NCBI GenBank assembly: GCA_045612165.1
Contig: JAZKYM010000094.1
Location: 1-14,963 of the forward strand
DNA length: 14,963 bases
Source of the DNA: Vescimonas sp.
Lineage (GTDB): Bacteria; Bacillota; Clostridia; Oscillospirales; Oscillospiraceae
Reading direction: 5' to 3'
Shown: piece by piece, positions 587 through 14,963 of the stretch
Layout of the letters: every line of letters starts with the position of its first letter
Position numbering within the stretch: position 1 is the first letter of the stretch
Notes under the pieces: model-generated
Told to the model about the DNA's origin: nothing
Seen by the model: the letters and a program-made list of their open reading frames with translations, nothing else
Databases searched by the model: none
Translations under genes and position numbers: made by a program

Positions 587-669
587 TAAGTGACGCAGCT
601 ACACTGTGATAGGCGAAGTCTGCATCACACAGGTCTTGTGCATCGCGTTTCGACAGGAAAGCAGCATTC

Positions 670-708: not shown

Positions 709-710
709 CG

Positions 711-784: not shown

Positions 785-802
785 AGATGCAGTTACTGTG
801 CC

Positions 803-831: not shown

Positions 832-907
832 GGCGAAAAATGTCGCCCCCGGCATGAATTGCCGCGTCGGCGCATAAGGTGAGAAAAATGCTGTGGAGGG
901 AACGCGG

Positions 908-2041
908 ATGAAGCGATGTATTGTTCTTGCGCTGCTCTTTTTGTGCCTGTGGCCGGCTTCGGCATGGGCGGTAGAGCTGGAGATCGAGGCGCCGGCGGCG
1001 CTTTTGATGGAAAAGACCACGGGGCAGATTCTGTACGCCCAAAACGAACATCAGAAGCTGGAGCCTGCCAGCGTCACCAAGGTGATGACGCTGCTTTTGA
1101 CCATGGAGGCCATTGAAAAAGGTGCTATCGGCTATGATGACGTGGTGACAGTCAGCGCCTACGCCGCCTCCATGGGCGGCAGCAACGTGTATCTGGCTGA
1201 GGGAGAGAAAATCACGGTGGAGGAGCTGCTGAAAGCGGTCTGTGTGGCGTCGGGCAACGATGCGGCGGTGGCGCTGGCTGAGCATGTGTCCGGTGTAACG
1301 GAGTTGTTTGTGGCAGAGATGAACAACCGCGCCAAAGAGCTGGGCATGAGGGACACCCACTTTGTCAACTGCCACGGCCTGCCGGCAGAGGGGCATGTAA
1401 CCAGTGCGGCGGACATCGCCATCATGAGCCGTGAACTGATTTTGAGCCATCCGGATTTGCGGCGCTTTACCACCATCTGGATGGACTCGCTGCGAGGGGG
1501 CGCCTTTGAGCTGGCCAACACCAACAAGCTGATCCGTTTTTATGAAGGGGCGACAGGACTGAAGACCGGCTCCACCAGCTCTGCCGGCTACTGCATCAGC
1601 GCCACCGCCGAGCGCGACGGCATGGAACTGATCGCTGTGGTGCTCAAGGGCGGCACATCGCAGCAGCGTTTCGAGGATGCCAAAACTATGCTCAACTACG
1701 GGTTTTCCACCTATGCGCTGCATGCGGTGGAACTTGCCGAGCCGCTGATGCCGCTGCCGGTGCACTTGGGTATGCAGGAGACGGTGGCGTTGATGCTGCC
1801 TGAGGCGGGACGGCAGGTGCTGGTAAAAAAGGCGCAGGTATCCGGCCTGACGCAGGAAGTGACGCTGCCGGAAGAGGTGGAGGCGCCGGTGGCACAGAGG
1901 CAGCAGCTGGGTACGCTGACCGTTCGTGATGGCGAGACAGTGGTGCTGGAGGTACCCGTTCAGGCAGCGGAAGCGGTGGAAAAGCTGACGTGGTGGGAGA
2001 TGTACCGCCGGATGCTGGGGGAGTTATGTTTTCGGGCGTAA
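908..2041 (+). CDS. Serine-type D-Ala-D-Ala carboxypeptidase (PBP5/6, peptidase S11 family) with N-terminal signal peptide
   Basis: The product carries the penicillin-binding motifs SVTK (SxxK), SGN (SxN) and KTGST (KTG). It has a signal peptide MKRCIVLALLFLCLWPASAWA and a C-terminal PBP5-type domain. GGAGGG precedes the ATG at 908; the ATG at 893 in the track lies upstream of the SD and is less likely. Confidence 0.85.
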   Translation: MKRCIVLALLFLCLWPASAWAVELEIEAPAALLMEKTTGQILYAQNEHQKLEPASVTKVMTLLLTMEAIEKGAIGYDDVVTVSAYAASMGGSNVYLAEGEKITVEELLKAVCVASGNDAAVALAEHVSGVTELFVAEMNNRAKELGMRDTHFVNCHGLPAEGHVTSAADIAIMSRELILSHPDLRRFTTIWMDSLRGGAFELANTNKLIRFYEGATGLKTGSTSSAGYCISATAERDGMELIAVVLKGGTSQQRFEDAKTMLNYGFSTYALHAVELAEPLMPLPVHLGMQETVALMLPEAGRQVLVKKAQVSGLTQEVTLPEEVEAPVAQRQQLGTLTVRDGETVVLEVPVQAAEAVEKLTWWEMYRRMLGELCFRA

Positions 2042-2071
2042 AAAGAGACGGCGTGAGCCGTCTCTTTTTTC
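2041..2071 (+). terminator. Rho-independent terminator of the carboxypeptidase gene
   Basis: Stem agagacggc / gccgtctct with a GTGA loop, followed by TTTTT(T) at 2066-2070, immediately after the stop codon. Confidence 0.8.
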
Positions 2072-2100
2072 TTGTAATTTGCGCTGCAGCGTTGTAAAAT
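2072..2100 (+). promoter_or_regulatory. Sigma70-like promoter for pgi (-35 TTGTAA, 17-bp spacer, -10 TAAAAT)
   Basis: cTTGTAAtttgcgctgcagcgttgTAAAATaat, then an AT-rich leader and AGGAGG 9 nt upstream of the ATG at 2148. Confidence 0.5.
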
Positions 2101-2147
2101 AATAAAATAAGGAAATATCACCAACTTTCATACAGGAGGAAATATAT

Positions 2148-3485
2148 ATGATTCAGGTCAATCTGACCAACATTCAGTCTTTTGTGACCCCTAATTATGA
2201 GGCAGAACTGGCTGAGCGTGTTCGTGACGCCCACGACAAGCTGCAGCTGGGCACCGGCGCCGGCAGTGACTTTATCGGCTGGGTGCGGCTGCCTGCCGAC
2301 TACGATAAAGAAGAATTTGCCCGTATCAAGGCTGCTGCCGAGAAGATCAAGAGCGACAGTAAGGCGTTGGTGGTGGTAGGCATCGGCGGCTCCTATCTGG
2401 GTGCCCGTGGTGTTATCGAGTGCCTGTGCTCTGCCAACTACAACCTGAAGAAGAAGGATACGCCCAACATCTACTTTGCCGGTAACGGTCTCTCTTCCGA
2501 TCAGCTGAGCGAAGTGGTGGAGCTGCTGGGTGACGACGACTTTTCCGTTAATGTCATCTCCAAGTCCGGCACTACCACCGAGCCTGCCGTGGCTTTCCGC
2601 TTTTTCCGCAAGCTGCTGGAGGACAAGTACGGCGAGGAAGAAGCTGCTCGCCGCATCTATGCCACCACTGACCGCGCTCGCGGCGCGCTGAAGACGCTGG
2701 CAGATGAGGCCGGCTATGAATCCTTCGTGGTGCCGGATGATGTGGGTGGCCGTTACAGTGTGCTGACCGCCGTGGGTCTGCTGCCCATCGCCGTGGCCGG
2801 TGTGGACATTGACGCGCTGATGGCCGGTGCTGCCGATATGATGGAAAGCTGTGCCAAGCCCGAACTGGAGACCAATCCTGCATGGCAGTACGGTGCTGCC
2901 CGTTACGAGCTGTACCGCACCGGCAAGAAGATCGAGATTCTGGCTGCCTATGAGCCTAATTTCCGATTCATGTGCGAGTGGTGGAAGCAGCTCTACGGTG
3001 AGAGCGAGGGAAAAGAGAACAAGGGTCTGTTCCCTGCCAGCGTGGAATTTACCGCAGACCTGCACTCCATGGGTCAGTACATTCAGGAGGGTGAGCGCCA
3101 CATCTTTGAGACGGTGGTGCGTCTGGGCAAATCCGCCACGACGAATTGCGTGCCCTTTGACAAGGTCAATGGCGATGGCCTGAACTTCCTGGCCGGTAAG
3201 GATATGGACTTCATCCGCCAGCAGGCCATGGACGGTACGCTGCTGGCCCATGTGGAGGGCGGTGTGCCCAACATCATCGTGGGTCTGGAAAAGCTGGATG
3301 CGTATTCTCTGGGCGAATTGATTTATTTCTTTGAGTATGCCTGCGGCATCAGCGGTTATCTGCTGGATGTGAATCCCTTTGATCAGCCCGGTGTGGAGGC
3401 CTATAAGAAGAACATGTTCGCGCTGTTGGGCAAGCCCGGCTATGAGGAGCTGCGCCGGGAACTGTTGGCCAAGCTGGATCAGTAA
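2148..3485 (+). CDS. pgi: Glucose-6-phosphate isomerase (445-aa Firmicutes-type PGI)
   Basis: The length, the overall sequence and the conserved [14 protein letters not shown] sis-domain motif are typical of bacillus/clostridial Pgi. A strong SD (acAGGAGGaaatatatATG) precedes the start. Confidence 0.9.
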
Positions 3486-3609
3486 CGATTGTTCGTTTCT
3501 ACAAAAAAAGAGTGTATAATTTCTCATTGCTATTTTCGCGACAATGTGGTATCGTATAGTTAAATATAGGAACCACTGGTTGCTGTATATTCTGAAGGAG
3601 TGATTTCTT

Positions 3610-4020
3610 ATGGTTAGATTGATTATGGGTGCCGCCGGTGCCGGCAAGACCAAGCAGCTGATCGACCTGATCCACGCCAGCGTGGAAGCCGAAAAGGGCA
3701 GTGTTGTATGCATTGAGCCCGGCGCAGATATGACTTATGACGTGAGCCACAGCGTGCGTCTGGTCAACGCCGGCGAGTATGATCTGGATTCTTTTGAGTG
3801 CCTGCGCGGCTTTGTCAGCGGTCTGTATGCAGGCAATTACGATATCTCTCATGTCTACGTGGACAATCTGTGCAAGATTACCCGTAACAACGACGTGCGT
3901 GAGACGGAGAAGTTCCTCAACTGGCTGGAGCGCTTCAGCGAGAAGAACATGGTGAAGTTCACCGTGACCCTCAGCGCTGATGTGGGTACCGCTACGGATG
4001 GTATGCGTCAGTTCATGTAA
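3610..4020 (+). CDS. Small P-loop (Walker-A-like GAAGAGKT) hypothetical protein, 136 aa
   Basis: AAGGAG lies 9 nt upstream of ATG 3610. The product starts MVRLIMGAAGAGKTKQLIDL... G+C resembles the backbone and a clean terminator follows. I cannot assign a family beyond the P-loop-like motif. Confidence 0.6.
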   Translation: MVRLIMGAAGAGKTKQLIDLIHASVEAEKGSVVCIEPGADMTYDVSHSVRLVNAGEYDLDSFECLRGFVSGLYAGNYDISHVYVDNLCKITRNNDVRETEKFLNWLERFSEKNMVKFTVTLSADVGTATDGMRQFM

Positions 4021-4028
4021 GTCCATAG

Positions 4029-4060
4029 AAGAGCCGCGATCACGGTCGCGGCTCTTTTTC
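4029..4060 (+). terminator. Rho-independent terminator
   Basis: A 10-bp perfect stem agagccgcga (4030-4039) / tcgcggctct (4046-4055) is followed by TTTT at 4056-4059. Confidence 0.75.
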
Positions 4061-4073
4061 GCTCATAAGCCTC

Positions 4074-4102
4074 TTGTGAAACAGGTGGCGGCGTGATACA
4101 AT
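4074..4102 (+). promoter_or_regulatory. Sigma70-like promoter upstream of the tRNA-Leu locus (-35 TTGTGA, 17-bp spacer, -10 TACAAT)
   Basis: cTTGTGAaacaggtggcggcgtgaTACAATaagcaagtgtctat-GCGGGTA... The -10 lies about 15 nt upstream of the tRNA-like 5' end at 4117. Confidence 0.5.
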
Positions 4103-4116
4103 AAGCAAGTGTCTAT

Positions 4117-4160
4117 GCGGGTATGGCGGAATTGGCAGACGCGCAGGATTTAGGTGCTGT
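4117..4160 (+). pseudogene. Truncated/degenerate tRNA-Leu-like 5' half (acceptor 5' strand, D arm, anticodon region TAG) lacking T arm and acceptor 3' strand
   Basis: GCGGGTA-TG-GCG-gaattggcaga-CGC-G-CAGGA-TTTAGG-TGCTG matches the tRNA-Leu 5' half up to the anticodon stem, which has one mismatch and a 6-nt loop. The downstream sequence ggtgaaggttttccggttccccttgatttcccg has no GGTTCGA-type T arm and no strand complementary to GCGGGTA. Confidence 0.4.
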
Positions 4161-4220
4161 CACCTTGGTGAAGGTTTTCCGGTTCCCCTTGATTTCCCGT
4201 AAAGGATCTTATAAAATAAA

Positions 4221-4250
4221 TAACAGCCGGAAATGCTCTCCGGCTGTTCA
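4221..4250 (-). other. GC-rich hairpin (aacagccgg/ccggctgtt) with a T-tract on the minus strand; terminator-like in minus orientation
   Basis: The stem aacagccgg (4221-4229) / ccggctgtt (4240-4248) has loop aaatgctctc. It is preceded on the plus strand by ataaaataaataa, which reads as a U-tract on the minus strand, and lies between the tRNA fragment and the intact tRNA-Leu. Confidence 0.3.
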
Positions 4251-4253
4251 TAT

Positions 4254-4336
4254 GCGGATGTGGCGAAACTGGTATACGCGATAGATTTAGGCTCTATTGG
4301 GCGACCGTGCAGGTTCGAGTCCTGTCATCCGCACCA
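4254..4336 (+). tRNA. tRNA-Leu (anticodon TAG), 83 nt, type-II long variable arm, encoded CCA
   Basis: GCGGATG-TG-GCG-aaactggtata-CGC-G-ATAGA-TTTAGGC-TCTAT-tgggcgaccgtgc-AGGTTCGAGTCCTG-TCATCCGC-A-CCA. The acceptor, anticodon and T stems all pair. Confidence 0.85.
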
Positions 4337-4337
4337 C

Positions 4338-4378
4338 AAAAACACCGGGTTTCTTTTTGGGAATCCGGTGTTTTTCTA
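4338..4378 (+). terminator. Rho-independent terminator after tRNA-Leu
   Basis: Stem aaaacaccgg (4339-4348) / ccggtgtttt (4365-4374) followed by a T-rich tttttct. Confidence 0.65.
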
Positions 4379-4464
4379 ACTTTTTATAAGATTTGTGAGC
4401 TTAGGAAACACTCTGTGCGCGAATTCATAAGTTTCGTTATGTTTTGTAATGTCACAAAATTATA

Positions 4465-4493
4465 TTGACACATAGCAAAACTTGTGATATGTT
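4465..4493 (+). promoter_or_regulatory. Strong sigma70-like promoter of the cassette operon (-35 TTGACA, 17-bp spacer, extended -10 TGaTATGTT)
   Basis: tataTTGACAcatagcaaaacttgTGaTATGTTaaatgcagatcatAGGAGGtgctgttATG. A perfect -35 and a TGn-extended -10 sit 27 nt upstream of the start of gene A. The inverted repeat TTTTGT-N6-ACAAAA at 4442-4459 lies just upstream. Confidence 0.55.
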
Positions 4494-4519
4494 AAATGCA
4501 GATCATAGGAGGTGCTGTT

Positions 4520-5272
4520 ATGGATTACGATAAAATTATCATTGACCTATTGAATCGCATTGTTACATTGGAAGAACGAGTGGCCAAGCTGGAAAGTGGA
4601 AGCACGAATGTGCCTCAGGAGAGCCCTGAGTTGCCTGCTGGAAGTAAAAAATATCGTTTCCTCTCTGATTATCTCTACGAAAGCAACCAAGCACGGGTCA
4701 AGCTGACCTATGTCGAAATTGAGAACATCCTGAAATTTAAGCTTCCGGATTCCGCGGCCACCCATCGTGCGTTTTGGGCAAACACAACCAGCCACTCCAT
4801 TGCGCTTAGTTGGCTCAGCGTAAATTACTCTGTTGTGGAAGTTAATCTTGAAAATAAGTACATTGTTTTTGAGAAAATGAGGGATTTTGATACGATGAAA
4901 ACGGGAAGAAAAACAGCTACAACCGAAGAAAAGTATCTGAGCGTTTGCAAAAATTATGACATGATGGCTCTTTATCAGAAGCTGAGAGCGGCATTGTTCG
5001 ATGCGTTTGAAGGTGCTGGTACTGGCGCAACTGCTGACTATATTAGTTGGAATGTAAATGGCAAACGGCAGTTTGCTAACTTCTATATTCAGAAAAAGAA
5101 GATCCGCATTTTGACACTCACTCCGAGAAACAGCCACAGCGTGGGAGAGACTGTGCCGGACACACATCTGTGGACGTTAAACTATCAAACAGATATTTCT
5201 ACGGATGCGGATATTGAAAAAGTAAAAGACATTCTGCTTGATTCTTACTCTCAAATTAAACTGTCTATTTAA
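4520..5272 (+). CDS. Hypothetical protein (250 aa) with N-terminal coiled-coil segment; no recognisable catalytic motif
   Basis: AGGAGG lies 7 nt upstream of ATG 4520; the 4496 start in the track would contain the SD inside the ORF. The product starts MDYDKIIIDLLNRIVTLEERVAKLESG..., with a conserved-looking block LPDSAATHRAFWANTTSHSIALSWL. This is the first gene of the low-G+C operon. Confidence 0.6.
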   Translation: MDYDKIIIDLLNRIVTLEERVAKLESGSTNVPQESPELPAGSKKYRFLSDYLYESNQARVKLTYVEIENILKFKLPDSAATHRAFWANTTSHSIALSWLSVNYSVVEVNLENKYIVFEKMRDFDTMKTGRKTATTEEKYLSVCKNYDMMALYQKLRAALFDAFEGAGTGATADYISWNVNGKRQFANFYIQKKKIRILTLTPRNSHSVGETVPDTHLWTLNYQTDISTDADIEKVKDILLDSYSQIKLSI

Positions 5273-5302
5273 GGTATTCATTTAGGGCTCGAGGTGCTCG
5301 CT

Positions 5303-5848
5303 ATGGCAAGAAAACGCATTACAAACAGACCCGGGTTGTTTGGCACCGTTTACCACTATGACGAGAATGGAAATCCCGTCGGAAAGAGTCGCCCTGGTTT
5401 GATTGAGGGAACCAGAGTGTATACCGACCAAGACGGTCGATACGCTGGAAAAAGCCGCCCGGGTTTTCTTGCAAAGGAAGTATTTGCGGATGCAGATCAC
5501 AATTATATTTCCTCCTATGAAGGCCTCTGCGGTGATGTTCACTTTCAAAATGGTGTACCTATAGGCCATACAAGACCGGGGTTCTTCGATTCGATATATA
5601 CCACTTTAGAAACAGAGGATGACCTTCCCGAAGAAGAGTATTGCGAGGAAGACTACTTTGAAGAAGAGTGGACAGAAGATCAAGAGAATTGTACTGGCAT
5701 CGCAGATGAAGCTGAATCCACAAATTGTGAGGAGCACCTTCCCCAAATTTCTCAGCATCCCGTGGTAAAGAATCTTCAACTGTTCGTACTATGCCTTGTG
5801 ATCTGTACGGTCATTGCCTGCGTTTATGCGATTATTCATTTGGATTAA
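5303..5848 (+). CDS. Small tail-anchored membrane protein (181 aa) with four YD-like repeats, an acidic linker and a C-terminal TM helix
   Basis: GAGG lies 8 nt upstream of ATG 5303; the track start at 5294 is a GTG upstream of the SD. Four tandem about 22-aa repeats occur: NRPGLFGTVYHYDENGNPVG, KSRPGLIEGTRVYTDQDGRYAG, KSRPGFLAKEVF...GVPIG and HTRPGFFDSIYT. Then follow an acidic stretch EEEYCEEDYFEEEWTEDQE and a C-terminal hydrophobic helix LFVLCLVICTVIACVYAII. Confidence 0.55.
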   Translation: MARKRITNRPGLFGTVYHYDENGNPVGKSRPGLIEGTRVYTDQDGRYAGKSRPGFLAKEVFADADHNYISSYEGLCGDVHFQNGVPIGHTRPGFFDSIYTTLETEDDLPEEEYCEEDYFEEEWTEDQENCTGIADEAESTNCEEHLPQISQHPVVKNLQLFVLCLVICTVIACVYAIIHLD

Positions 5849-5873
5849 TTTGAGATAGCAACTGTTCTTTTGC

Positions 5874-5897
5874 TATCATTCTATCGAACAAAAAGTT
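5874..5897 (+). other. Intra-operon hairpin (gatagcaa/ttgctatc) without a U-tract, between genes B and C
   Basis: An 8-bp perfect stem (5874-5881 / 5890-5897) with loop ctgttctt, followed by attctatcg rather than a T run. Confidence 0.3.
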
Positions 5898-5980
5898 TGC
5901 ATGTAGTTGGTTATATAAAAAGAACAGGTAGGAAGAAGAAATGTTGATTTTATTTAAATCAAGTTAGAAGGTGCTAATGT

Positions 5981-7147
5981 ATGAATAAATCTCAAAAGAT
6001 CGCACTGCTCAGAACACTAAGCAGTAACCGGGTATTGCGTACAGAATTATTTTATGACATTCTTGAAAAATGCGGAGATTTAAAGCTAAATTACACTGAT
6101 TATTCCTCCACACATCCCATTGATTGCGAAAAAGAAATGCTGCGGCTGCCTACCGCAGATTACGATATGTGTTGTGCGTTAGTCACTATGCTTCTTCGGG
6201 AGGATCATTTTTCTAACGGCAGTTTTGAGGAGCGCCAGCGTGCTGGTCAAGTAAAACCCATCATAGATAGAATGATTTTACTGTTAGAATATGAGAATAA
6301 CCCAGGAGGTCAAACTATGAAGAAAATCCTTCTCGAGGATTTGCTACATATCCCTGCAGAAATGGCAAGTGATGTAAAGGTCAAGTTCAACCAGCACGAT
6401 GGTGACAATGATCCTATGGAGCTGTATTTGCGTGAGCCGGAGATCGTGAATACACAATGGCTGTTTTGGCGCAACAAGCAGCGATATTTCTCCATTGGGC
6501 AAATTGCAATCTGCCTTTTGAAGCTTTCTAATGACACTTGGCTATTGACCACCATCAAGCGTGTTACCAAAGAATTGGGCGTGCTGGATGGCATCAATTA
6601 CGAAGGTGAAGAACTCGAAGAATACCGCCAGTATTACGGCCGCGTAATCATCAAGTACCACAAAACAGCACAAACCCAAGGTATGTACTACCCCACCGTG
6701 TGCAATGATTTGGAAGTGTTACAGCTGCTTCCTACCACATTTGATGGAGATGAATTTCCAGGCTATGATAATGTCAGATTGTCCTACATGCAACTAGCCT
6801 CCATTTTGGAGCGGAGAAAGCAAAGCTGGGTTGCTGCGCTTGAGAACCAAAAAGCAGTGTATTTAATTACTGATACATGCAATGGAAAATTGTATGTAGG
6901 GTCTGCTACCAGCGAGAAGGGTATGCTCTTGCAACGATGGAGCAACTATGTAGATAACGGACACGGCGGAAACAAAGAACTGCTCGCATTGGTGAAAGAA
7001 AAAGGGTTCGACTATGTGAAACAGTATTTTCAATACTCAATTTTGGAAAACTACAACGCAAAAATTGATGACCATGTTGTCCTGAAGCGAGAGTCCTGGT
7101 GGAAGGATGCCTTGCAAAGCAGGCGTTTTGGATATAATAGCAATTAA
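5981..7147 (+). CDS. Two-domain protein (388 aa): unknown N-terminal region plus C-terminal GIY-YIG nuclease domain
   Basis: The C-terminal about 100 aa, AVYLITDTCNGKLYVGSATSEKGMLLQRWSNYVDNGHGG...ESWWKDALQSRRFGYNSN, fits the GIY-YIG pattern (VYxI...GKxYVGSA...R...H/N...E...N). The SD aAGAAGGtg lies upstream of ATG 5981. An in-frame internal AGGAGG+7nt+ATG occurs at 6304-6319. Confidence 0.65.
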   Translation: MNKSQKIALLRTLSSNRVLRTELFYDILEKCGDLKLNYTDYSSTHPIDCEKEMLRLPTADYDMCCALVTMLLREDHFSNGSFEERQRAGQVKPIIDRMILLLEYENNPGGQTMKKILLEDLLHIPAEMASDVKVKFNQHDGDNDPMELYLREPEIVNTQWLFWRNKQRYFSIGQIAICLLKLSNDTWLLTTIKRVTKELGVLDGINYEGEELEEYRQYYGRVIIKYHKTAQTQGMYYPTVCNDLEVLQLLPTTFDGDEFPGYDNVRLSYMQLASILERRKQSWVAALENQKAVYLITDTCNGKLYVGSATSEKGMLLQRWSNYVDNGHGGNKELLALVKEKGFDYVKQYFQYSILENYNAKIDDHVVLKRESWWKDALQSRRFGYNSN

Positions 7148-7219
7148 ATGTTGCTGCATGTAAAATGACATCACAAGATAAGCGAAGATAACGAGTATCG
7201 TACGGAAGGAGTGTGAAAT

Positions 7220-8479
7220 ATGTCCTCATACAATGAACTTATTAAAAACTTTGAGAAGATCAGAGCCTACATGCGAGAGTTCTATGTCTACGGGTTCAAA
7301 AGCCGTGACGACTACCAGAAGAAGAGCGCCCGTTCCTATGATGACGAGCGGCGTCGCCTGGAAAGCTGGCTTGGGGATCACATGAGCTTCGTGCGCACTC
7401 CTGAAGGCAAAAATGTTTTCATCTCCATCGATAGTCGCACCATCCGGCATAACCCACTGTACAATGCCTGGAAAGCGAAGAGTTTTACCGATGGCGACAT
7501 TACTCTGCATTTCATTCTCTTTGACATTCTCCATGACCCTGGCGTGAAGCGAACCATTGCCGAGCTCATGGAAGAAATGGATACGAAATATCTGTCGGGA
7601 TTTGAAATGCCCATGATGTTCGACGAATCCACTGTTCGAAAAAAGCTCAAGGAATACTGCGAGGCCGGCATCATCACTCAGGAAAAAGAAGGCCGCAAGA
7701 TATATTACCGAAGAACAGATAGCGCCGATATTTCCGATTTGAACGATGTCCTGCATTATTTTTCGGAGGTTGCGCCCTGCGGTGTCATCGGCTCTTACAT
7801 ACTGGATAGAGAAGATACGGACACCGATGCGTTTACATTCAAGCATCATTACATAACCGGCGCCATTGATAGCGGTGTTCTTGCCTCGCTGTTCACGGCC
7901 ATGCGAGAAAAACGGGCTGTCACAGTCACGAATATGAGTCGACGCAAAGACATTCCCAGACGCAATCGTGTTGTTCCGCTTCGTATTTTTATCAGCGCGC
8001 AAAGCGGTCGTCAGCATCTGTTTGTTTACATGCCTGACTTTAATTCGTTTAATTCTTTACGCGTAGATTATCTTTCCAATGTTAAACTGGAAGATCCCAC
8101 GCCCCGCTTTGACGAACTCCGAGCAGAACTCGACCGAATGCAAAGCAAAATGTGGGGTGTCAGCGTAAAGCGAAACAAGTGGGGCAACGAGCATCTTGAG
8201 CATGTAGAGTTCACAATAAAGGTTGAAGATAATGAGGAATATATTGTCAAGCGCCTGGAACGTGAGAAACGCATTGGCACGGTGGAAAAGCTTGACGAGC
8301 ATACCTACCGTTTTTCGGCGGATGTCTATGATACCAGCGAGATGATCCCCTGGATCCGAACCTTTATTTGCCGCATCGATAAGATGAATTTCTCCAATCG
8401 CACCATTGAGAATCAATTCAAGAAGGATCTGGAAGCCATGTATCGGATGTATGGTATCAGACAGGAGGTGGGCGAATGA
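7220..8479 (+). CDS. WYL-domain family protein (419 aa; wHTH - WYL - C-terminal WCX-like domain), PafB/BrxR-like putative regulator
   Basis: GGAAGGAG lies 8 nt upstream of ATG 7220. A central winged-HTH-like segment reads KRTIAELMEEMDTKYLSGFEMPMMFDESTVRKKLKEYCEAGIITQEKEGRKIYYR. A WYL-like core reads RQHLFVYMPDFNSFNSLRVDYLSNVKL. A C-terminal ...MIPWIRTFICRI... block is typical of WCX extensions. Confidence 0.5.
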   Translation: MSSYNELIKNFEKIRAYMREFYVYGFKSRDDYQKKSARSYDDERRRLESWLGDHMSFVRTPEGKNVFISIDSRTIRHNPLYNAWKAKSFTDGDITLHFILFDILHDPGVKRTIAELMEEMDTKYLSGFEMPMMFDESTVRKKLKEYCEAGIITQEKEGRKIYYRRTDSADISDLNDVLHYFSEVAPCGVIGSYILDREDTDTDAFTFKHHYITGAIDSGVLASLFTAMREKRAVTVTNMSRRKDIPRRNRVVPLRIFISAQSGRQHLFVYMPDFNSFNSLRVDYLSNVKLEDPTPRFDELRAELDRMQSKMWGVSVKRNKWGNEHLEHVEFTIKVEDNEEYIVKRLEREKRIGTVEKLDEHTYRFSADVYDTSEMIPWIRTFICRIDKMNFSNRTIENQFKKDLEAMYRMYGIRQEVGE

Positions 8480-9387
8480 TATTCAGTGAGCTTTACTCTG
8501 CCTATTACAATACGGTTGCCGCCATTCTTTCCGCTATCCTCGACGGTGAGCACTCCGAACAGGAATTGCAAAAGATCGTAGCGGATTACGCATTTGGCGA
8601 GAGTGTGCTGACCATTATGCCCTCCCTCAAAAGCGAAAAGTGGCAGCTGGTGCATTCCGATATGACCACCCCATTGGAACACAAGCCCACAATACCGCTG
8701 ACGACCCTTCAAAAGCGGTGGCTCAAGGCAATTTCTCTGGACCCCCGTGTGAAGCTGTTTGGTGTGGATTTTCCCGATCTTGAAGATGTGGAGCCCTTGT
8801 TCACATTTGCGGATTATTACATTTACGATCAATATAATGACGGCGATCCCTTTGAGGATGAGCAGTACATAAGAAATTTTAGAATCATTTTGGATGCTAT
8901 CCGCAAGGGTGCGCAGATCAAATTTGACATGACAAACCGTAAAGGCAATATGATGTTTGTCCGATGCCGTCCTTTGCGCCTGGAATATTCCGAAAAGGAT
9001 GATAAATTCCGAGTGGTTACGGCGGGCTGGCGGGCGGTTTCTACGGTTAACCTTGCCAAAATCAGAAGCTGCGCCTATGATATCGGTTATCGGCGAGTGA
9101 GCGGTCGGGAGAGAACGGTGGTTTACGACACTGTCACCGTTAAGATCCGCGACGAGCGAAACGCCATGGAACGCTTCATGCTTCATTTCGCCCATTTTGA
9201 AAAGCAAGCCGAGAAACTTGATAAGAAGCATTACCTCGTAAAAATCAAATATGCTCACGATGATGAATCGGAAATGGTGATCCGGATCCTTTCCTTTGGC
9301 CCTATGATTGAGGTCATGGAACCGGAGGCTTTCAGAAAATTAGTCATTGAAAAGCTAGAAAAACAGCTAAGCTGCGGACTCAAATAA
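8476..9387 (+). CDS. Second WYL-domain family protein (303 aa), translationally coupled to the upstream WYL gene (ATGA overlap), PafC-like partner
   Basis: The start ATG overlaps the stop of the upstream gene (8476-8479 ATGA). A WYL-like core reads NMMFVRCRPLRLEYSEKDDKFRVVTAGWR. The C-terminal VIRILSFGPMIEVMEPEAFRKLVIEKLEKQ matches the characteristic ...G..veVleP..lr... WCX signature of WYL/PafBC-type proteins. Confidence 0.5.
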   Translation: MIFSELYSAYYNTVAAILSAILDGEHSEQELQKIVADYAFGESVLTIMPSLKSEKWQLVHSDMTTPLEHKPTIPLTTLQKRWLKAISLDPRVKLFGVDFPDLEDVEPLFTFADYYIYDQYNDGDPFEDEQYIRNFRIILDAIRKGAQIKFDMTNRKGNMMFVRCRPLRLEYSEKDDKFRVVTAGWRAVSTVNLAKIRSCAYDIGYRRVSGRERTVVYDTVTVKIRDERNAMERFMLHFAHFEKQAEKLDKKHYLVKIKYAHDDESEMVIRILSFGPMIEVMEPEAFRKLVIEKLEKQLSCGLK

Positions 9388-9408
9388 GAGTTCGCAGCTT
9401 TTTTTCCG
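9369..9408 (+). terminator. Rho-independent terminator closing the cassette operon
   Basis: A 9-bp stem aagctgcgg (9369-9377) / tcgcagctt (9392-9400) with one G-U pair has the stop codon in its loop and is followed by TTTTTTT (9400-9406). Confidence 0.7.
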
Positions 9409-9438
9409 TGAAAAACGGTATGCGGATTGGTAAAATAT

Positions 9439-9459
9439 GCTTGCAAGGTACCTTCAAGC
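9439..9459 (+). promoter_or_regulatory. Near-perfect inverted repeat gcttgcaagg-ta-ccttcaagc just downstream of a TAAAAT -10-like hexamer (9431-9436): candidate operator
   Basis: The reverse complement of gcttgcaagg is ccttgcaagc, and the second arm ccttcaagc differs from it at one position. It lies in the long leader upstream of the SPFH-RtcB genes. Confidence 0.25.
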
Positions 9460-9558
9460 CAGTGTTTGAGTTGATCCTTCACAGCGGTGCACCAGGATGT
9501 TCCAAAGTGTATGCCAGAAGAATCCTTGCTCCTTATGAGCCTGTTCAGCTCGGATTTC

Positions 9559-9584
9559 GCGGGTTCGAATCCCGCCGTGCGCCA
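9559..9584 (+). other. Orphan tRNA 3'-end-like fragment (T arm GCGGG-TTCGAAT-CCCGC plus 3' acceptor strand ...CGTGCGCCA) with no matching 5' half
   Basis: ttcGCGGGTTCGAATCCCGCCGTGCGCCAaaag has the canonical T-loop TTCGAAT and a 5-bp T stem. No complementary acceptor 5' strand, D arm or anticodon arm lies within 120 nt upstream. It is not a copy of the tRNA-Leu or tRNA-Gly 3' ends in this window. Confidence 0.35.
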
Positions 9585-9882
9585 AAAGCGTATCGCCAGT
9601 GGTTTGGATTTGTCCTACGGGACGCAAAAACGGTACACTTAACTGTGTGCGAGAACGTTTTATTCTAAGATTCGTTATCATTCGGCAAAGAGAGAAATGC
9701 CCCCGGTAGATTTCTCGGCGCAATGCAAAGCGAGCCTTGCCTGGAAGCGGATACCGTGTTATCCCAATCGGTGCCAAAAGAGTGCTTTCCGCACCGTGCC
9801 GGAAATACTTAAGCTTTCAGCCGCTGCTTTTGCATGAATGATAGCGAGATCGCATTACTACCTTTCAGGAGGATTACATACT

Positions 9883-10986
9883 ATGAAAAAGATGATTATC
9901 AATGAAAATCAAAAGGGCTTTCTCTTCAAAAACGGCAAGTATATCAAGCTGCTGGATGCCGGCAAATATCATCTGTTTGGCGGCAAGGAGATCGTAATCT
10001 CCAATCTAGACCAGCCCATCGCCTGCAGCAAGTGTGCCCTGGAAACCTTGCTTGCCGATAAGTCTGTGTCCGAGCGTGTGACGGTGGTTGAGGTGGGCGA
10101 CGAGGAACTGGCGCTGCACTATGTGAACGGCAAGTTCTCCTCTGTGCTTCGCCACGGCAAACACGCGTTTTGGTCTGTGGTGGATCAGCATGAATTCAAA
10201 ATCGTAGATATCTCCACACCCGAAGTGGATGCATCTATCCCTGTGTACATCTTCTCCAAGATTCCTCAGATCTACTACACCAAAATCGAAGTTGCAGAGT
10301 ATCAGAAGGGCAGACTCTATTTCGATCAGAAGCTGGTGCGCATTTTGGATGCAGGCACCTATTACTTCTGGAAAACATCCACGAAGGTGGATGTAGGATT
10401 TGTGGACACCCGTTTGACGCAAATGAACATCACCGGTCAGGAGATTTTGACGGCAGATAAGGTATCCTTGCGCATCAACTTCGTCTGCAACTATCGTGTG
10501 ACCGACTACGTCAAGATTCTGACCGAGATCGATGATTTCGCAGAACAAATGCATGTGGCGGCACAGCTGGCTCTCCGGGAATATGTTGGCAAACACAAGC
10601 TGGATGAAATCCTGGAAAACAAGGATCAAATGTCCCAGTTTGTGTTCGCAAAGCTGAAGTCCAAGGAGAAGGATTTGTTCGTGGAAATTACGGATGCCGG
10701 TGTGAAGGATATTATCCTGCCCGGTGAGATCCGGGAAATCATGAACACCGTCTTGGTGGCTGAAAAGCGCGCGCAGGCCAATGTCATCACCCGCCGTGAG
10801 GAGGTAGCCTCCACTCGTTCTCTACTGAATACTGCAAAGCTGATGGACGAGAACCAGACCCTTTACAAGCTGAAGGAGCTGGAGTATGTGGAGCGCATTT
10901 GCGAGAATGTTGGCAACATTTCCTTAAATGGCAATGGCAACATCCTCTCCCAGCTGACAGCAATTCTGAAGGTCAACGACGTCTGA
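9883..10986 (+). CDS. SPFH/band-7 (stomatin/prohibitin/flotillin/HflKC) domain protein, 367 aa
   Basis: AGGAGG lies 10 nt upstream of ATG 9883; the track ORF start at 9838 lies upstream of the SD. The core NITGQEILTADKVSLRINFVCNYRVTDYVKI...LALREYVGKHKLDEIL...AGVKDIILPGEIREIMN...AEKRAQANVITRREE is typical of SPFH domains. No obvious N-terminal TM helix. Confidence 0.75.
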   Translation: MKKMIINENQKGFLFKNGKYIKLLDAGKYHLFGGKEIVISNLDQPIACSKCALETLLADKSVSERVTVVEVGDEELALHYVNGKFSSVLRHGKHAFWSVVDQHEFKIVDISTPEVDASIPVYIFSKIPQIYYTKIEVAEYQKGRLYFDQKLVRILDAGTYYFWKTSTKVDVGFVDTRLTQMNITGQEILTADKVSLRINFVCNYRVTDYVKILTEIDDFAEQMHVAAQLALREYVGKHKLDEILENKDQMSQFVFAKLKSKEKDLFVEITDAGVKDIILPGEIREIMNTVLVAEKRAQANVITRREEVASTRSLLNTAKLMDENQTLYKLKELEYVERICENVGNISLNGNGNILSQLTAILKVNDV

Positions 10987-11062
10987 TCCCGATACGGTCG
11001 GACACGTTGTAGCTGTGCATCATAAATAAAAGCCCGATCGTACCATAGGAAAGGAGAATGAC

Positions 11063-12271
11063 ATGATTGAGATTATAGGAAACTTTAACACCGCCCGTGT
11101 ATTTGCCACCACCCTGGACGATGGCGCGCGAGAGCAGATCAAGACGGTATGTGATACTGAGGCCTTTGCCTCTTCGAAGATCCGGATCATGCCCGATGTT
11201 CACGCAGGAAAGGGTTGCACCATTGGTACCACCATGACCATCACGGATAAGATCGTTCCCGCGATGGTTGGTGTGGATATCGGCTGCGGCATGTACACCG
11301 TATACCTTGGCAACATCGATATCGACTTTGAGAAGGTAGACGAGGCGGCACACTTCATCCCTTGCGGCAGAAATGTTTGGGAGGGCAGACAGGAGCGGTT
11401 CGACCTGACTCAGCTGCGTTGCTACCGGTCCCTCCGGGATACCAAGCGTCTTGAGCGATCCTTAGGCACTCTGGGTGGCGGTAATCACTTCATAGAGATC
11501 GATGCGGACGAGAACGGCGGCAAGTACCTGGTGATTCACTCGGGAAGCCGCAATCTCGGCACCCAGGTGGCCGAATTTTATCAGCAGCTGGCTGTGGATC
11601 TGAATGTAGGCAAGGAGGAGTATTTCAAGCAGCGTGAGGAGATCATCCGCACCTACAAGGAACAAGGCAGACGCGCCGAGATCCAGACAACGCTGAAGGC
11701 GTTGGATAAGGATTTTCAAGCTAAGAATCCTACGCTCCCCCGTGATCTTTGCTTCCTCTATGGTTCCTTTATGGCCGACTACCTCCACGATGTGGATATC
11801 TGCCAGAAGTTTGCGGAGAGAAATCGCGCGAAGATGGCAGAAATTATCCTTGATCGCTGCGGCTGGACTGCCCTGGAGACCTTCCAGACCATTCATAACT
11901 ACATTGATGTGAATGAGATGGTGCTCCGCAAGGGTGCTGTATCTGCCAAGGCAGGCGAGAAACTGCTGGTTCCCATCAATATGCGTGATGGCTCGCTGAT
12001 CTGCATTGCCAAGGGTAACCAGGATTGGCACTGTTCCGCACCTCACGGTGCCGGACGGCTGATGTCCCGTTCTGCTGCCTTCGAGCGGCTGACCATGGCT
12101 GAGTATGAGGCCGAGATGGCAGGTATCTATTCCACCTGCGTTGTCCCCGACACCCTCGACGAGTCCCCTATGGCTTACAAGAGCATGGATGAAATCGTAG
12201 AGAACATCGAGCCTACTGCCGAAATTCTTTGCAGAATAAAGCCCATTTACAATTTTAAGGCTGCAGAATAA
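11063..12271 (+). CDS. rtcB: RtcB-family RNA ligase (3'-phosphate/5'-hydroxyl nucleic-acid ligase), 402 aa
   Basis: AAGGAG lies 6 nt upstream of ATG 11063. RtcB hallmark motifs are present: MPDVHAGKGCTIGT, VGVDIGCGM, GTLGGGNHFIEI and SAPHGAGR. The gene is 76 nt downstream of the SPFH gene on the same strand. Confidence 0.85.
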   Translation: MIEIIGNFNTARVFATTLDDGAREQIKTVCDTEAFASSKIRIMPDVHAGKGCTIGTTMTITDKIVPAMVGVDIGCGMYTVYLGNIDIDFEKVDEAAHFIPCGRNVWEGRQERFDLTQLRCYRSLRDTKRLERSLGTLGGGNHFIEIDADENGGKYLVIHSGSRNLGTQVAEFYQQLAVDLNVGKEEYFKQREEIIRTYKEQGRRAEIQTTLKALDKDFQAKNPTLPRDLCFLYGSFMADYLHDVDICQKFAERNRAKMAEIILDRCGWTALETFQTIHNYIDVNEMVLRKGAVSAKAGEKLLVPINMRDGSLICIAKGNQDWHCSAPHGAGRLMSRSAAFERLTMAEYEAEMAGIYSTCVVPDTLDESPMAYKSMDEIVENIEPTAEILCRIKPIYNFKAAE

Positions 12272-12365
12272 AAAAGATGTCACTTTTTACCGCCTCTATA
12301 CATATACATCATAGAGGTGGTATATCGTGTCACTGTTGATGGAACCCTGCGAAAACAAAGAGATA

Positions 12366-12438
12366 ATATGATATAATCTCTACTAAGAAAGGTCATCATG
12401 TTCGTTATAGTAGGACTCGGTGACCTTTTACTTTTTAG
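12366..12438 (+). promoter_or_regulatory. Compact unit: extended -10 (TGaTATAAT, 12369-12377) embedded in an AGAGAT/ATCTCT inverted repeat, followed about 10 nt later by a hairpin (aaaggtca/tgaccttt, 12388-12428) and T-rich tract; candidate small transcript or regulatory element
   Basis: aaAGAGATaatatGaTATAATCTCTactaagAAAGGTCAtcatgttcgttatagtaggactcggTGACCTTTtactttttag. Only a 5-codon ORF is possible here. Confidence 0.2.
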
Positions 12439-12520
12439 CAGGTCGTGTTTTAAAAATCTCCATAATTTGTAACTTTCTTTCGGCTCTAGAGCTGGGAAAG
12501 TGGGGAAGTTTTCAGCCAGA

Positions 12521-12556
12521 AAATGTGCGGACGATAGGTTGATCGTCCGCACTATT
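12521..12556 (-). terminator. Bidirectional hairpin terminator between convergent rtcB and recombinase genes
   Basis: Stem tgcggacgat / atcgtccgca with loop aggttg, flanked by aaaa on the + upstream side and tattttt on the + downstream side. It lies 24 nt beyond the recombinase stop codon (12578) in minus-strand direction. Confidence 0.6.
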
Positions 12557-12577
12557 TTTGTTGGTTACAAAGGCAAA

Positions 12578-13828
12578 TCACTTATTCGTCTGTATGCGCA
12601 GGAGCAGAAGCTCATCGATTTCTTCCTCCAGGGCTTGCACTTCCTGATGGAGCTGGTGCAGTTTTGCGAGGATTGCTGGGCATTTTCTCTCCCGCAGGCA
12701 TTTGCGCTGACGGAGCTCGGCTTGCTCTGCCAGCAGCTGATCTCGTAGCTTTTCTGCGTACCGCTGCACCCTAGCATCCAGCTCGGATTCCCGGATGCGG
12801 TGAGAGGGACAGACTTCTTTTCCATGGCGCATATAGCTTCTGCACAGATATTCCACCCGGCGGTTGCCGTTCCAACACCGGATCCTGGGTACGAAGGTGC
12901 TGCCGCAATCGCCGCAAGCCAGCAATCCCGCATAGCGGTGACAGGCGGTATTGCCCCGGTAAGGCTTGGCATTGGCTTTCAGCAGTGCTTGCGCCTGCTC
13001 CCATTCCTCCCGGGCAACGATGGCCGGATAGAAATCCGTATGGCGGAATTGCTCAGCTTCCGGCACGGCGGTGACGGTGCGCCCGTGGGTCTCTGTCTGA
13101 TGATTGATCAGCAGGCCGGTGTAGCTCTCGTCGGCTAATACATTTTTGACGCTCTGATAGGTCCAACGGTAGCACTTGCCCTCGGCTTTTCCATGGCGTT
13201 CATCCTGGAGCTGCCGGGGCGTTTTTCGCTCCATGGCATTGAGCCTGCGGGTGATCTCCTTTTGCCCCAGGCCCTCGCAGTAAAGTTCATAAATCAAGCG
13301 CACCGTCAGCGCCGCTTCCGGGTGGAGGCGGATACTGTTGGTGTTTTTATCTTTCCAGTAACCGAAGGGAGGCGTGACCACAATGCCTTTCTTTTGTTTC
13401 TCGCGATAACCATGACGGATCTTGTTGCCGATGTCCTTGGCGTAGTAATCGTTCATCAGTTGGGTGATGCCGATGGCAAGTTCGTCCTCGTCATCCATGG
13501 TGCTCAGCCCTTCGGTAGCAGACAAAACTGCCACGCCTTGATGGCGCAAATAATCTATGAATAGAGAGGTCTGCGTCCGGTGGCGTCCCAGCCGGGACAT
13601 ATCTTTTACGATTACCGCATCGATCTGTCTCTTTTCTGCCGCTGCAGACAGCCTCTCCAAGCCTTTGCGGTCGAAGCGCATGCCGGAAGAGTTGTCATCG
13701 TAAGACTCTCCCACCACCGTATAGCCATGCTCCCGGGCATAGTCCCGGATGATCTGCAGCTGATTCTCCAGGGAGTTCATTTCTACATCATCGTCATTGG
13801 ATAGCCTCCCATACAGCCATACTCTCAT
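12578..13828 (-). CDS. Large serine recombinase (resolvase/invertase N-terminal catalytic domain + recombinase domain + zinc ribbon with short coiled coil), 416 aa
   Basis: The N-terminus MRVWLYGRLSNDD...ENQ has the catalytic Ser at position 10, followed by DAVIVKDMSRLGR. A zinc-ribbon CGDCGSTF...C..HGKEVCPSH is followed by a coiled coil. GGAGG lies 7 nt upstream of the ATG, and the start overlaps the upstream recombinase stop (ATGA). Confidence 0.85.
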   Translation of the reverse strand: MRVWLYGRLSNDDDVEMNSLENQLQIIRDYAREHGYTVVGESYDDNSSGMRFDRKGLERLSAAAEKRQIDAVIVKDMSRLGRHRTQTSLFIDYLRHQGVAVLSATEGLSTMDDEDELAIGITQLMNDYYAKDIGNKIRHGYREKQKKGIVVTPPFGYWKDKNTNSIRLHPEAALTVRLIYELYCEGLGQKEITRRLNAMERKTPRQLQDERHGKAEGKCYRWTYQSVKNVLADESYTGLLINHQTETHGRTVTAVPEAEQFRHTDFYPAIVAREEWEQAQALLKANAKPYRGNTACHRYAGLLACGDCGSTFVPRIRCWNGNRRVEYLCRSYMRHGKEVCPSHRIRESELDARVQRYAEKLRDQLLAEQAELRQRKCLRERKCPAILAKLHQLHQEVQALEEEIDELLLLRIQTNK

Positions 13829-14963
13829 GCGCTCACCTCCTCGATAATCTCGGCCAGTTCGCTGGTGGTCAGCACACCGTTTTCGTAAGTCTCGGTGTGG
13901 TCACGGAAAGGCGCTTTCAGCTTGATATCCAGGCTGATACCTTCCTCGGATTCGTACACATAAATCTTCTCAATCAGCAGTCGCAGGTGTGCCTCGGTCA
14001 TACATCCATCAGCCAGGATCTGATCGATGAGGCTGATGTCTTTCTTTAGTTTCGCCTGTCGGCTGCGAATGGTCTGATCCAAGTTTTCCAGCTCTGCGAT
14101 CTTTTTCTTGGCCTGGGCAATCTGTTCTTCCCGTTTGGCAATCATGCGGTCATACCGGGCGGCGTTGGCCTTATCTCGTATTCTCTCCATGAGAATATCC
14201 TCCATTTCTTCTTCCATGGTGTCGATCTGCTGGTGAAGTTTCTTCAGTTGCGCCAGGGTGTTGGTGACCTTGGGGGTCCATCGATCCACCGTGTCCTGCA
14301 TGGCATCCCATATTTGCAGGTACTGATCTTTGGTGCGGAGCAGCTCCGTACGGATGATCTCATCCAGGTATTCCTCCCGAATAGCGTGGGAGGAGCAATG
14401 CTCCTTGCCATAGCGGAAGTAGGTGCTGCACCAATATTCCACCCGGCTGGCAGCCTTATTTTTGATGGTCTTACCAGTGAAGGATCTACCGCAATCGCCG
14501 CAGGTGACCAACCCGGAGTAGCGGTGGATGGTGCTCCCCGGACCGGCTCGGACATTGTTTTGCTTTCGTGCAGCCAGCAGATCCTGCACCTGCAGCCACA
14601 GTTCTTTGGTGACGATCACCGGCAGGAAGTTTTCATGCCGGAACTGTTCGCTTGCTTCTGTGAAGCGGAAGGTTCGGTTGATTTTGTTCTGCTCGCTCTT
14701 ATGACAGATGAGGGTGCCGGTGTAGGTTTCGTCCTGCAGAATGCGACTGACCATTGTGGCGTTCCAAAGATACTTTTTCTTCACGTCCCTCTCCAAATGC
14801 TCCGGCATTCGCTTGCCAATCAGCTCCAGCTGCATCTGCGCTGGGGTCTTTCGCTTTTCTTCATTGAGTAGTCTGGCGATGGCCTTGAGACCCATGCCAC
14901 TGATATAGGACGAAAAAATCAGGTGGACCGTTTCCGCAGCTTCCGGAACGATCTCCACCTGAT
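13825..14963 (-). CDS. Second large serine recombinase, partial (N-terminal catalytic domain lies beyond the window edge); recombinase domain + zinc ribbon + long coiled coil present
   Basis: The reading frame is open to the window end; the track's 'M' at 14958 is a GTG inside the ORF, preceded by an in-frame Gln codon. Zinc ribbon CGDCGRSF...C..YGKEHCSSH and an extended coiled coil are present. The stop TGA overlaps the downstream recombinase ATG by 4 bp. Confidence 0.8.
   Translation of the reverse strand, partial: QVEIVPEAAETVHLIFSSYISGMGLKAIARLLNEEKRKTPAQMQLELIGKRMPEHLERDVKKKYLWNATMVSRILQDETYTGTLICHKSEQNKINRTFRFTEASEQFRHENFLPVIVTKELWLQVQDLLAARKQNNVRAGPGSTIHRYSGLVTCGDCGRSFTGKTIKNKAASRVEYWCSTYFRYGKEHCSSHAIREEYLDEIIRTELLRTKDQYLQIWDAMQDTVDRWTPKVTNTLAQLKKLHQQIDTMEEEMEDILMERIRDKANAARYDRMIAKREEQIAQAKKKIAELENLDQTIRSRQAKLKKDISLIDQILADGCMTEAHLRLLIEKIYVYESEEGISLDIKLKAPFRDHTETYENGVLTTSELAEIIEEVSA

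Follow-up and report, generated by a model that had tools for sequence, protein, structure and literature searches.

Adjacent Large Serine Recombinase Genes of a Vescimonas Contig as the Probable Integration Module of a Small Element at tRNA-Leu(UAG)

The Recombinase Genes

Serine integrases are the main recombinases of genome engineering; in nature the sites they use lie nearly always in protein-coding genes or in intergenic DNA. The present analysis concerns two adjacent genes for large serine recombinases (LSRs), called LSR-A and LSR-B, and a disrupted tRNA-Leu(UAG) gene in a contig of Vescimonas sp. (Oscillospiraceae; GenBank assembly GCA_045612165.1, contig JAZKYM010000094.1, positions 1 to 14,963); this stretch of 14,963 nucleotides is referred to as the window. 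The LSR genes lie on the minus strand at the right window edge, A followed by B. LSR-A, the upstream long paralogue, covers 13825–14963 and runs on beyond the window. Its reading frame is open from the window edge through to the TGA stop, which leaves the C-terminal 378 amino acids visible of a protein that has about 542 amino acids in relatives. LSR-B, the downstream short paralogue (12578–13828), is complete with 416 amino acids, has the catalytic residues Arg8 and Ser10, and ends in a terminal helix. The start codon of LSR-B (13828–13826) and the stop codon of LSR-A (13827–13825) share the tetranucleotide ATGA at 13825–13828, and a GGAGG Shine-Dalgarno sequence for LSR-B is located inside LSR-A, 7 nucleotides ahead of the ATG (13836–13840, minus strand). 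An earlier note, made from the sequence of the window, had described this overlap, the GGAGG within the upstream open reading frame (ORF), and a downstream recombinase of 416 amino acids, all of which the ORF coordinates confirm. LSR-B thus appears to be translationally coupled to LSR-A, and the two genes probably form a tight operon which is co-translated. A terminator hairpin of this operon (12525–12552, minus strand) marks the end of the conserved backbone and the start of a cargo slot; homology of the closest relative, locus L001, to the window ends at window position 12549.

LSR-B matches the Pfam domains Resolvase (E 1e-27), Recombinase (2e-21), and Zn_ribbon_recom (1e-11). In the visible 378 amino acids of LSR-A the Recombinase and Zn_ribbon_recom domains are found, together with a match to DUF4368 below the threshold. 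As a proxy for the full-length protein a contig was used (L011) which is 94% identical at the DNA level to the window edge and encodes a 542 amino acid protein beginning MRAWLYYRLSRDED with the catalytic motif YYRLS. The catalytic domain of LSR-A, which the earlier note had correctly placed outside the window, is therefore seen in proxies only; both of these, L011 (95% amino acid identity) and L001 (96–97%), have Arg8 and Ser10. All the parts of a serine integrase, namely a Resolvase domain with the nucleophilic serine, a Recombinase domain, and a zinc ribbon, are present in both proteins, the catalytic part of LSR-A by way of L011 and L001. Among the 120 best database matches listed for LSR-B almost all homologues have 410–416 amino acids, and the second ORF is not the pseudogene fragment which the earlier note had allowed for. 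Exact-sequence look-ups of LSR-B, Pgi, and RtcB from the window returned no matching record.

The G+C content of the LSR genes (0.50–0.59) is like that of the left flank (0.55–0.62) and not like that of the cassette between them (0.38–0.50), as had been noted before. An AlphaFold2 model of LSR-B shows one terminal helix of 68 residues (347–414) with a local predicted local distance difference test score (pLDDT) of 72–94 and an overall score of 63.8. The single-sequence model of LSR-A contains two long helices, one of about 67 and the other of about 55 amino acids; with a pLDDT of 42.9 it is poor overall, and conclusions on domains from this model were dropped. The proposal of a short coiled coil in B and a long one in A finds weak support in these low-confidence models, with one helix in B and two long helices in A.

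The tRNA-Leu(UAG) Genes and the Near-End Junction

Comparison of the window with L001 and other related loci revealed that, beyond the LSR genes, positions 4114–4336 are the only DNA of the window that these loci have in common. With L001 the homology comprises the LSR genes and this block, not the DNA in between. Reading the block as a repeated recombination site or as a small RNA was rejected, as it proved to consist of a tRNA and a tRNA half.

The half gene at 4117–4155 (plus strand) represents the first 39 nucleotides of a disrupted host tRNA-Leu(UAG), through the anticodon loop, and is identical over 42 nucleotides (100%) to the 5′ part of a Flavonifractor porci tRNA-Leu. Its tRNA sequence breaks off exactly at the end of the anticodon loop (...CAGGATTTAGGT); in place of the 3′ anticodon-stem strand comes GCTGTCACCTTGGTGAAGGTTTT, and this fragment by itself is not a tRNA. 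A promoter-like sequence of the host tRNA, TTGTGA-17-TACAAT, precedes it at 4074–4102 (plus strand), and TTGACA-17-TAAAAT is found at the same position in locus L010. The common core TTAGGT occupies 4150–4155 (plus strand), corresponding to tRNA nucleotides 33–38, with TT at 4150–4151 as the putative crossover dinucleotide. It is followed at 4156–4178 (plus strand) by the P′ arm of the attachment site, GCTGTCACCTTGGTGAAGGTTTT, which constitutes the element end. The same arm occurs in about 30 loci and mirrors the arm at the far end of four loci described below.

Inside the arm a spacer conserved with L001 and L010 (4189–4248) contains a promoter-like TTGATT-17-TAAAAT (4189–4217, plus strand) and a hairpin (4222–4248) that reads as a minus-strand terminator. 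A complete tRNA-Leu(UAG) gene then follows at 4254–4336 (plus strand), 98 nucleotides downstream of the host 5′ half; it was detected by ARAGORN, scores 57.8 bits with Rfam, and is in turn followed by a terminator-like hairpin (4338–4375, plus strand). Transcription from the host tRNA promoter at 4074–4102 may extend to this tRNA as well. The anticodon loop of the complete tRNA (window 4287–4292) reads TTTAGGC, not TTTAGGT, and the same holds for the element tRNAs of L001 and L025; the alteration of the last core position might lower re-use of the element tRNA as an attB site, or it might be neutral.

Of 30 loci scanned, 24 have a single intact tRNA-Leu(UAG) downstream of LSR-B on the opposite strand, and the intact gene is followed by one to five tRNA 5′ halves which all end in ...GATTTAGGT and continue with G[CA]TGTCACCT.... 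A classical model, in which the intact tRNA would be composed of a host 5′ half and an element 3′ half, was rejected for three reasons: spacer and complete tRNA are conserved along with the element in different hosts, the 5′ fragment has a host-type sequence, and the matching 3′ halves are found at the far ends of relatives. The region 12272–12577, where the earlier note had sought the att site, contains the operon terminator hairpin only and no att-like repeat; the junction is 8.4 kb away at 4117–4178. The most informative features of the locus, the tRNA-Leu half gene and the replacement tRNA, had been overlooked in that note.

Far-End Junctions, Attachment Sites, and an Empty Site

Four related loci, L010, L015, L019, and L043, contain the opposite junction, in which CACYMAGGTGACAT-NNCCN-TTAGGT is followed by a tRNA 3′ half. 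In longer context the sequence reads ...AAAAYCYTYCACYMAGGTGACAT-NNCCN-TTAGGT with the 3′ half of tRNA-Leu directly after it. A fifth locus (L039) has a degenerate far-end junction. The arms at the far and near ends are reverse complements of each other, and by joining them an attP site of 56 bp could be reconstructed, consisting of a 21-bp near-perfect inverted repeat, AAAACCTTCACTNAGGTGACA, which flanks a 14-bp spacer. The centre of this dyad is the TT of TTAGGT, tRNA positions 33–34, and the identity between host tRNA and element arm is limited to the six nucleotides TTAGGT. The attB site is asymmetric, with a mean pairwise identity of 73% on the 5′ side (D arm) versus 56% on the 3′ side (variable arm).

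In L010 the two tRNA halves are 8.2 kb apart, and joining them in silico yields a valid tRNA-Leu(UAG) in which the acceptor and anticodon stems pair perfectly; the rejoined halves of L015 likewise give a valid tRNA-Leu(UAG). In these two loci the island is bracketed by a 5′ and a 3′ tRNA half, and in the window the 5′-half junction alone is visible. A metagenomic contig (L088), which is 78% identical to the window at the DNA level through pgi and the gene for a P-loop protein, contains at the syntenic place an unbroken tRNA-Leu(UAG), and with it the comparison to a genome lacking the element that had been proposed could be made. The host flank is syntenic in many human-gut metagenome contigs that have no downstream tRNA-Leu, and among metagenomic relatives of the P-loop gene (about 76% amino acid identity) most lack a tRNA-Leu at this place, L088 being the only one usable as an empty site. 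From the rejoined halves and the intact tRNA of L088 it follows that the host tRNA is split in the anticodon loop and that 4254–4336 is a separate, element-borne gene. From the evidence at the near and far junctions, therefore, the element extends from about position 4150 to the window end. No second pair of att sites was found in the window and the related loci.

Two to five tRNA-Leu 5′ halves, every one of them joined to the element arm, are arrayed at recurrent distances of about 104, 137, or 215 nucleotides in L028 (11468–12600), L029 (11393–12859), L034 (9292–9716), L038 (13039–14431), and L172 (11509–12784). These arrays are presumably scars of serial integration, in which an incoming element would have used the tRNA of the resident element as a new attB.

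Conservation of the Pair among Relatives

By exact-match and translated searches the same arrangement of A and B was found in more than 30 Oscillospiraceae loci, with hosts including Lawsonibacter, Flavonifractor, Bengtsoniella, and many uncultured Oscillospiraceae genomes. In the intact loci, of which there are more than 25, the order A then B is constant, the gap ranges from −4 to +12 nucleotides, LSR-A has 524–559 and LSR-B 402–444 amino acids, and each locus has exactly two adjacent LSR paralogues. A G-rich motif resembling a Shine-Dalgarno sequence precedes the start of LSR-B in most related loci. A and B are regarded as paralogues because they are about 49% identical to each other. Their divergence between loci is correlated (r=0.90, 153 pairs), with B diverging faster than A (mean identity 61.6% versus 71.7%), and Arg8 and Ser10 are kept in all 21 LSR-A proteins and in 27 of 28 LSR-B proteins. 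On these comparisons the pattern fits an obligate two-gene module rather than two nested elements or a decaying duplicate. The earlier claim that the pair marks a mobile element is upheld by the junctions and by the conserved module in relatives.

Some loci deviate from this arrangement. L015 (9027–12583) and L043 (132–1280) are decayed derivatives in which LSR-A and the backbone are mostly or wholly deleted. LSR-B is a full ORF of 434 amino acids in L015, which also retains the replacement tRNA and both junctions, and is broken after about 214 residues in L043. In L168, an IMG/VR contig (2313–9099), LSR-A is truncated at the N-terminus to residues 75–529 and is preceded by three consecutive, distantly related LSR genes (25–29% identity), which suggests that a triple-LSR element has inserted into the LSR-A gene. 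In L173 (4295–7353) an LSR-B with 83% identity is followed downstream, on the opposite strand, by another two neighbouring LSR genes (530 and 487 amino acids), an unrelated pair; these adjoin a weak match to a phage capsid, and there is no tRNA-Leu within 10 kb.

Proposed Mechanism and Alternative Explanations

The anatomy of the pair, its conservation, both types of junction in relatives, and the unbroken tRNA which a relative has at the corresponding position can be read directly from the sequence comparisons. The explanation which fits these best, and which is likely to be correct, is that A and B are the integration and excision module of a small integrative element of Oscillospiraceae which targets tRNA-Leu(UAG) and brings along a replacement tRNA and cargo. 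The anticodon stem-loop of the chromosomal tRNA-Leu(UAG) would serve as attB, with crossover most likely at the TT of tRNA positions 33–34. Integration would cut the host tRNA, the 5′ half being kept at the junction in the window (4117–4155) and the 3′ half being moved to the far end outside the window, where the sequence ...AAAACCTTCACYNAGGTGACAT-NNCCN-TTAGGT is to be expected. Instead of the host gene being rebuilt, a whole tRNA-Leu(UAG) would be supplied about 100 nucleotides inside the element end (4254–4336), and the genes between LSR-B and this tRNA would be exchangeable cargo. By analogy with CcrA and CcrB the two recombinases are thought to act jointly as a heteromer. A possible rationale for such a heteromer is that symmetric attP arms are to be recombined with an attB whose 5′ side is conserved and whose 3′ side varies. 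TT is presumably the crossover dinucleotide, and the copy in the window is presumably still mobile.

Several observations weigh against this explanation. The decayed loci L015 and L043 retain B without an intact A. The empty site L088 belongs to a different species, and a pattern indicating an excised circle or an attP junction was not found in IMG/VR or in the fetched loci. The far end of the window copy lies outside the window, and in the clade of the window (L001, L002, and L172, with LSR-A at least 80% identical) no far-end junction is present within about 8 kb upstream of A. Complete bounded elements were encountered only in more distant relatives, in which LSR-B is about 57–61% identical. 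Finally, symmetric attP arms would also suit a homodimer, so that both proteins may not be needed.

In one alternative, considered unlikely although not far-fetched, the two proteins divide the labour: one LSR, probably the long A, would integrate by attP × attB recombination, while its partner would control directionality or regulation, resolve multimers of the replicating circle, or serve excision specifically. Such a division would agree with arms that a homodimer could bind, with the faster evolution of B (mean identity 61.6%, versus 71.7% for A), with the truncated C-terminus of B ending in a single helix, and with a backbone which looks replicative, containing an AAA_25 gene and iteron-like repeats. 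B has nevertheless kept all three catalytic and DNA-binding domains of an LSR as well as Arg8 and Ser10 in 27 of 28 proteins, no second site pair turned up, and operon spacing and co-divergence equally fit an obligate partnership. It is also quite improbable that the window copy is a fixed relic, in which the junction and the LSR genes persist, the far end has been lost, and the cargo has become chromosomal and immobile. In favour are the lack of a far-end junction in the roughly 8 kb upstream of A in the closest relatives, the decayed derivatives L015, L043, and L024, and arrays of old junction scars, which demonstrate that such sites erode; yet in the window both ORFs are intact with their catalytic residues, the P′ arm agrees with the family consensus, and related elements are located beside different host genes (pgi and the P-loop gene, YitT, or SpoIIP).

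Two further explanations have very little in their favour. That the pair are prophage integrases which integrate a temperate phage is highly improbable: three relatives are on IMG/VR contigs and a weak phage-capsid fragment lies near the L173 locus, but in the backbones AAA_25, NikA-like, and relaxase genes are found and virion genes are absent, and the complete element in L010 measures only 8.2 kb. Hardly any credence is given to a true ccrAB module of the type found in staphylococcal cassette chromosomes (SCC), or to two unrelated nested elements each with an LSR of its own. The two-gene LSR operon with variable cargo does resemble SCC and the enterococcal cassette chromosome (ECC; PMC6222049), but scores of 42–92 bits with the CcrA, CcrB, and CcrC equivalog models contrast with cut-offs of 700–900, and the target is a tRNA and not rlmH; against nesting stand the co-divergence of two paralogues and the single set of att arms.

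A more far-reaching proposal builds on the integration module at tRNA-Leu(UAG): the pair may belong to an undescribed family of heteromeric serine integrases which has a tRNA gene as natural target and uses a disrupt-and-replace strategy at U33-U34. This is put forward tentatively, with slightly less than even confidence. If true, it would be the first well-supported use of a tRNA gene by a serine integrase. Only the universally conserved anticodon loop would have to match, which would permit entry into hosts with differing tRNA-Leu stems, and a two-subunit serine integrase with a 6-bp core in this loop would have a naturally broad-host landing site. Each resident element would be a fresh attB, which would account for the arrays of 5′-half scars. 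The slot between integrase genes and tRNA would be a point of exchange for defence genes and a hotspot of such genes in abundant gut Clostridia. The pair would moreover provide a second system, independent of CcrAB, in which the sharing of att-site recognition between two LSR paralogues can be studied, and a clear case of an element which replaces, and does not repair, an essential gene broken on entry.

Relation to Known Systems

The earlier note had likened the pair to ccrAB and other multi-LSR modules. As a functional analogy this holds, while kinship with the Ccr proteins is contradicted by scores, gene order, and the tRNA target. With the NCBIfam models the pair scores 91–92 bits for CcrA, 64–72 for CcrB, 42–72 for CcrC, and 92 and 96 for XisF, all below the equivalog cut-offs of 700, 900, 900, and 375 bits, respectively; by its cut-off the pair is also not XisF, the excisase of the fdxN element. 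The ccrAB genes of SCC and ECC are bicistronic and target rlmH, both proteins inserting and excising a cassette with variable cargo (PMC6222049); CcrA/CcrB recombination is also mentioned in PMC3783163. Common to CcrA/CcrB of SCCmec and ECC and to the present pair are the bicistronic arrangement, the highly variable cargo, and the single conserved chromosomal site. The LSR lineage, however, is different, and the order here is long then short, the reverse of ccrA-ccrB (NCBIfam model lengths 442 and 542). The junction lies in the anticodon loop of tRNA-Leu(UAG), with no rlmH (orfX) noted there, and not at the rlmH 3′ end; instead of being preserved, the target gene is destroyed and a substitute supplied; and a replication gene belongs to the backbone, joined in relatives by a relaxase gene.

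Triplet serine integrases of streptococcal integrative and conjugative elements (Tn5252/Tn1549 superfamily; Ambroset et al. 2016) disrupt mutT, traG, or hsdM (PMC4701971). Like the present pair these are adjacent duplicated LSR paralogues inherited as a block, which act site-specifically on very short repeats and disrupt their target, and genes may lie between integrases and target. The triplets consist, however, of an external, a middle, and an internal gene, compared with two genes here, and they hit dispensable protein genes that are not replaced, in contrast to a tRNA of which the element has a copy. Because such multi-LSR modules, ccrAB and the streptococcal triplets, are known, the tandem LSR arrangement is in itself of a known kind; it is the target and the disrupt-and-replace strategy that are unusual.

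The closest relative with a solved structure is the catalytic domain of TnpX (2mhc; E 5e-19 for A and 4e-16 for B). TnpX and TndX of the mobilizable or conjugative transposons Tn4451 and Tn5397 share with the pair the clostridial mobilizable context (PMC5704250), and the hint of a DUF4368-like C-terminus is found in LSR-A. Those transposons have a single LSR with low target specificity (PMC5704250), whereas two LSRs and one strict target are seen here.

The tRNA islands of class 'A' in the Islander collection (PMC4383910) resemble the present element in the crossover in the region of the anticodon loop, the signature of a tRNA together with a tRNA fragment, and the repeated re-use of a site. 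They differ in having a tyrosine integrase in place of a serine integrase. Here the identity is limited to 6 bp, and what remains next to the intact gene is a 5′ half. Function is regained through a separate, complete tRNA gene that is additional, not regenerated, and lies within the island, instead of through a 3′ segment carried by attP. According to the Islander authors serine integrases are not known to target tRNA genes (PMC4383910), and the TIGER study, with 14 candidate cases among 297, regards such use as unreported and in need of proof (PMC7192596). No description of this family of LSR pairs or of the strategy of replacing a whole tRNA was found in the open-access literature.

Cargo, Backbone, and Host Flank

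Between the LSR terminator and the element tRNA lies the variable cargo slot (4337–12524). Its length is 44–162 nucleotides in nine relatives and 0.75–4.4 kb in fifteen (44–4408 nucleotides, n=24), compared with 8241 nucleotides in the window. The earlier note had offered the low-G+C side with rtcB and SPFH as one of two options for the cargo, and this is the side that corresponds to the slot; an 8.2-kb island with Uzume-like, WYL/WCX, SPFH, and RtcB genes is thereby delimited as mobile DNA. It starts with a DUF7662/DUF5655 protein (4496–5272) and an acidic ORF of 184 amino acids (5294–5848). These are followed by a UzuA (Uzume)-like GIY-YIG protein of 388 amino acids (5981–7147), which matches the PADLOC UzuA models with E 1.6e-49 and lies in the part of the cargo lowest in G+C. 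On the plus strand a WYL gene (7220–8479) and a WCX gene (8476–9387) overlap by 4 nucleotides (8476–8479), and genes for an SPFH/Band-7 protein (9838–10986) and for the RNA ligase RtcB (11063–12271) come next on the same strand. The genes from WYL/WCX over SPFH to RtcB (7220–12271) may form a WYL-regulated module for RNA repair or stress, carried by an element that replaces a tRNA. In relatives the slot has other contents, among them a SMODS/AGS_C cyclase of a cyclic oligonucleotide-based antiphage signalling system (CBASS), a reverse transcriptase, a weakly AbiGii-like protein, an HTH-Peptidase_M78 protein with DUF5986, and FRG, DUF3800, and DUF2806 proteins.

Upstream of LSR-A, in a part of the backbone which the window does not reach, the relatives have a conserved AAA_25/DnaB_C gene and small ORFs. 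L002, L003, and L006 have a PF03432 relaxase and a NikA-like gene, both of which L001, L010, and L172 lack, and no virion genes were seen in the backbones of relatives. Related elements adjoin different host genes, namely pgi and the P-loop gene in the window, YitT in L001 and L172, and SpoIIP in L002. The element is best described as small, integrative, plasmid-like, and probably mobilizable. The host flank on the left of the window contains a tRNA-Gly(CCC) (711–784) and, at 893–4020, genes including pgi and that of the P-loop protein with 136 amino acids, as well as a gene which from its translation we take to be D-Ala-D-Ala carboxypeptidase-like.

Three to four iteron-like repeats, CTCCTTATTTGGCAA, were observed upstream of the AAA_25 gene in L172 (about 6050–6350, minus strand), and they suggest a plasmid-type replication origin in the backbone. 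Within the slot of L001 a remnant of the 3′ end of LSR-B plus terminator (L001 13900–14018), 74% identical to window 12525–12644, hints that cargo grows through recombination between related elements.

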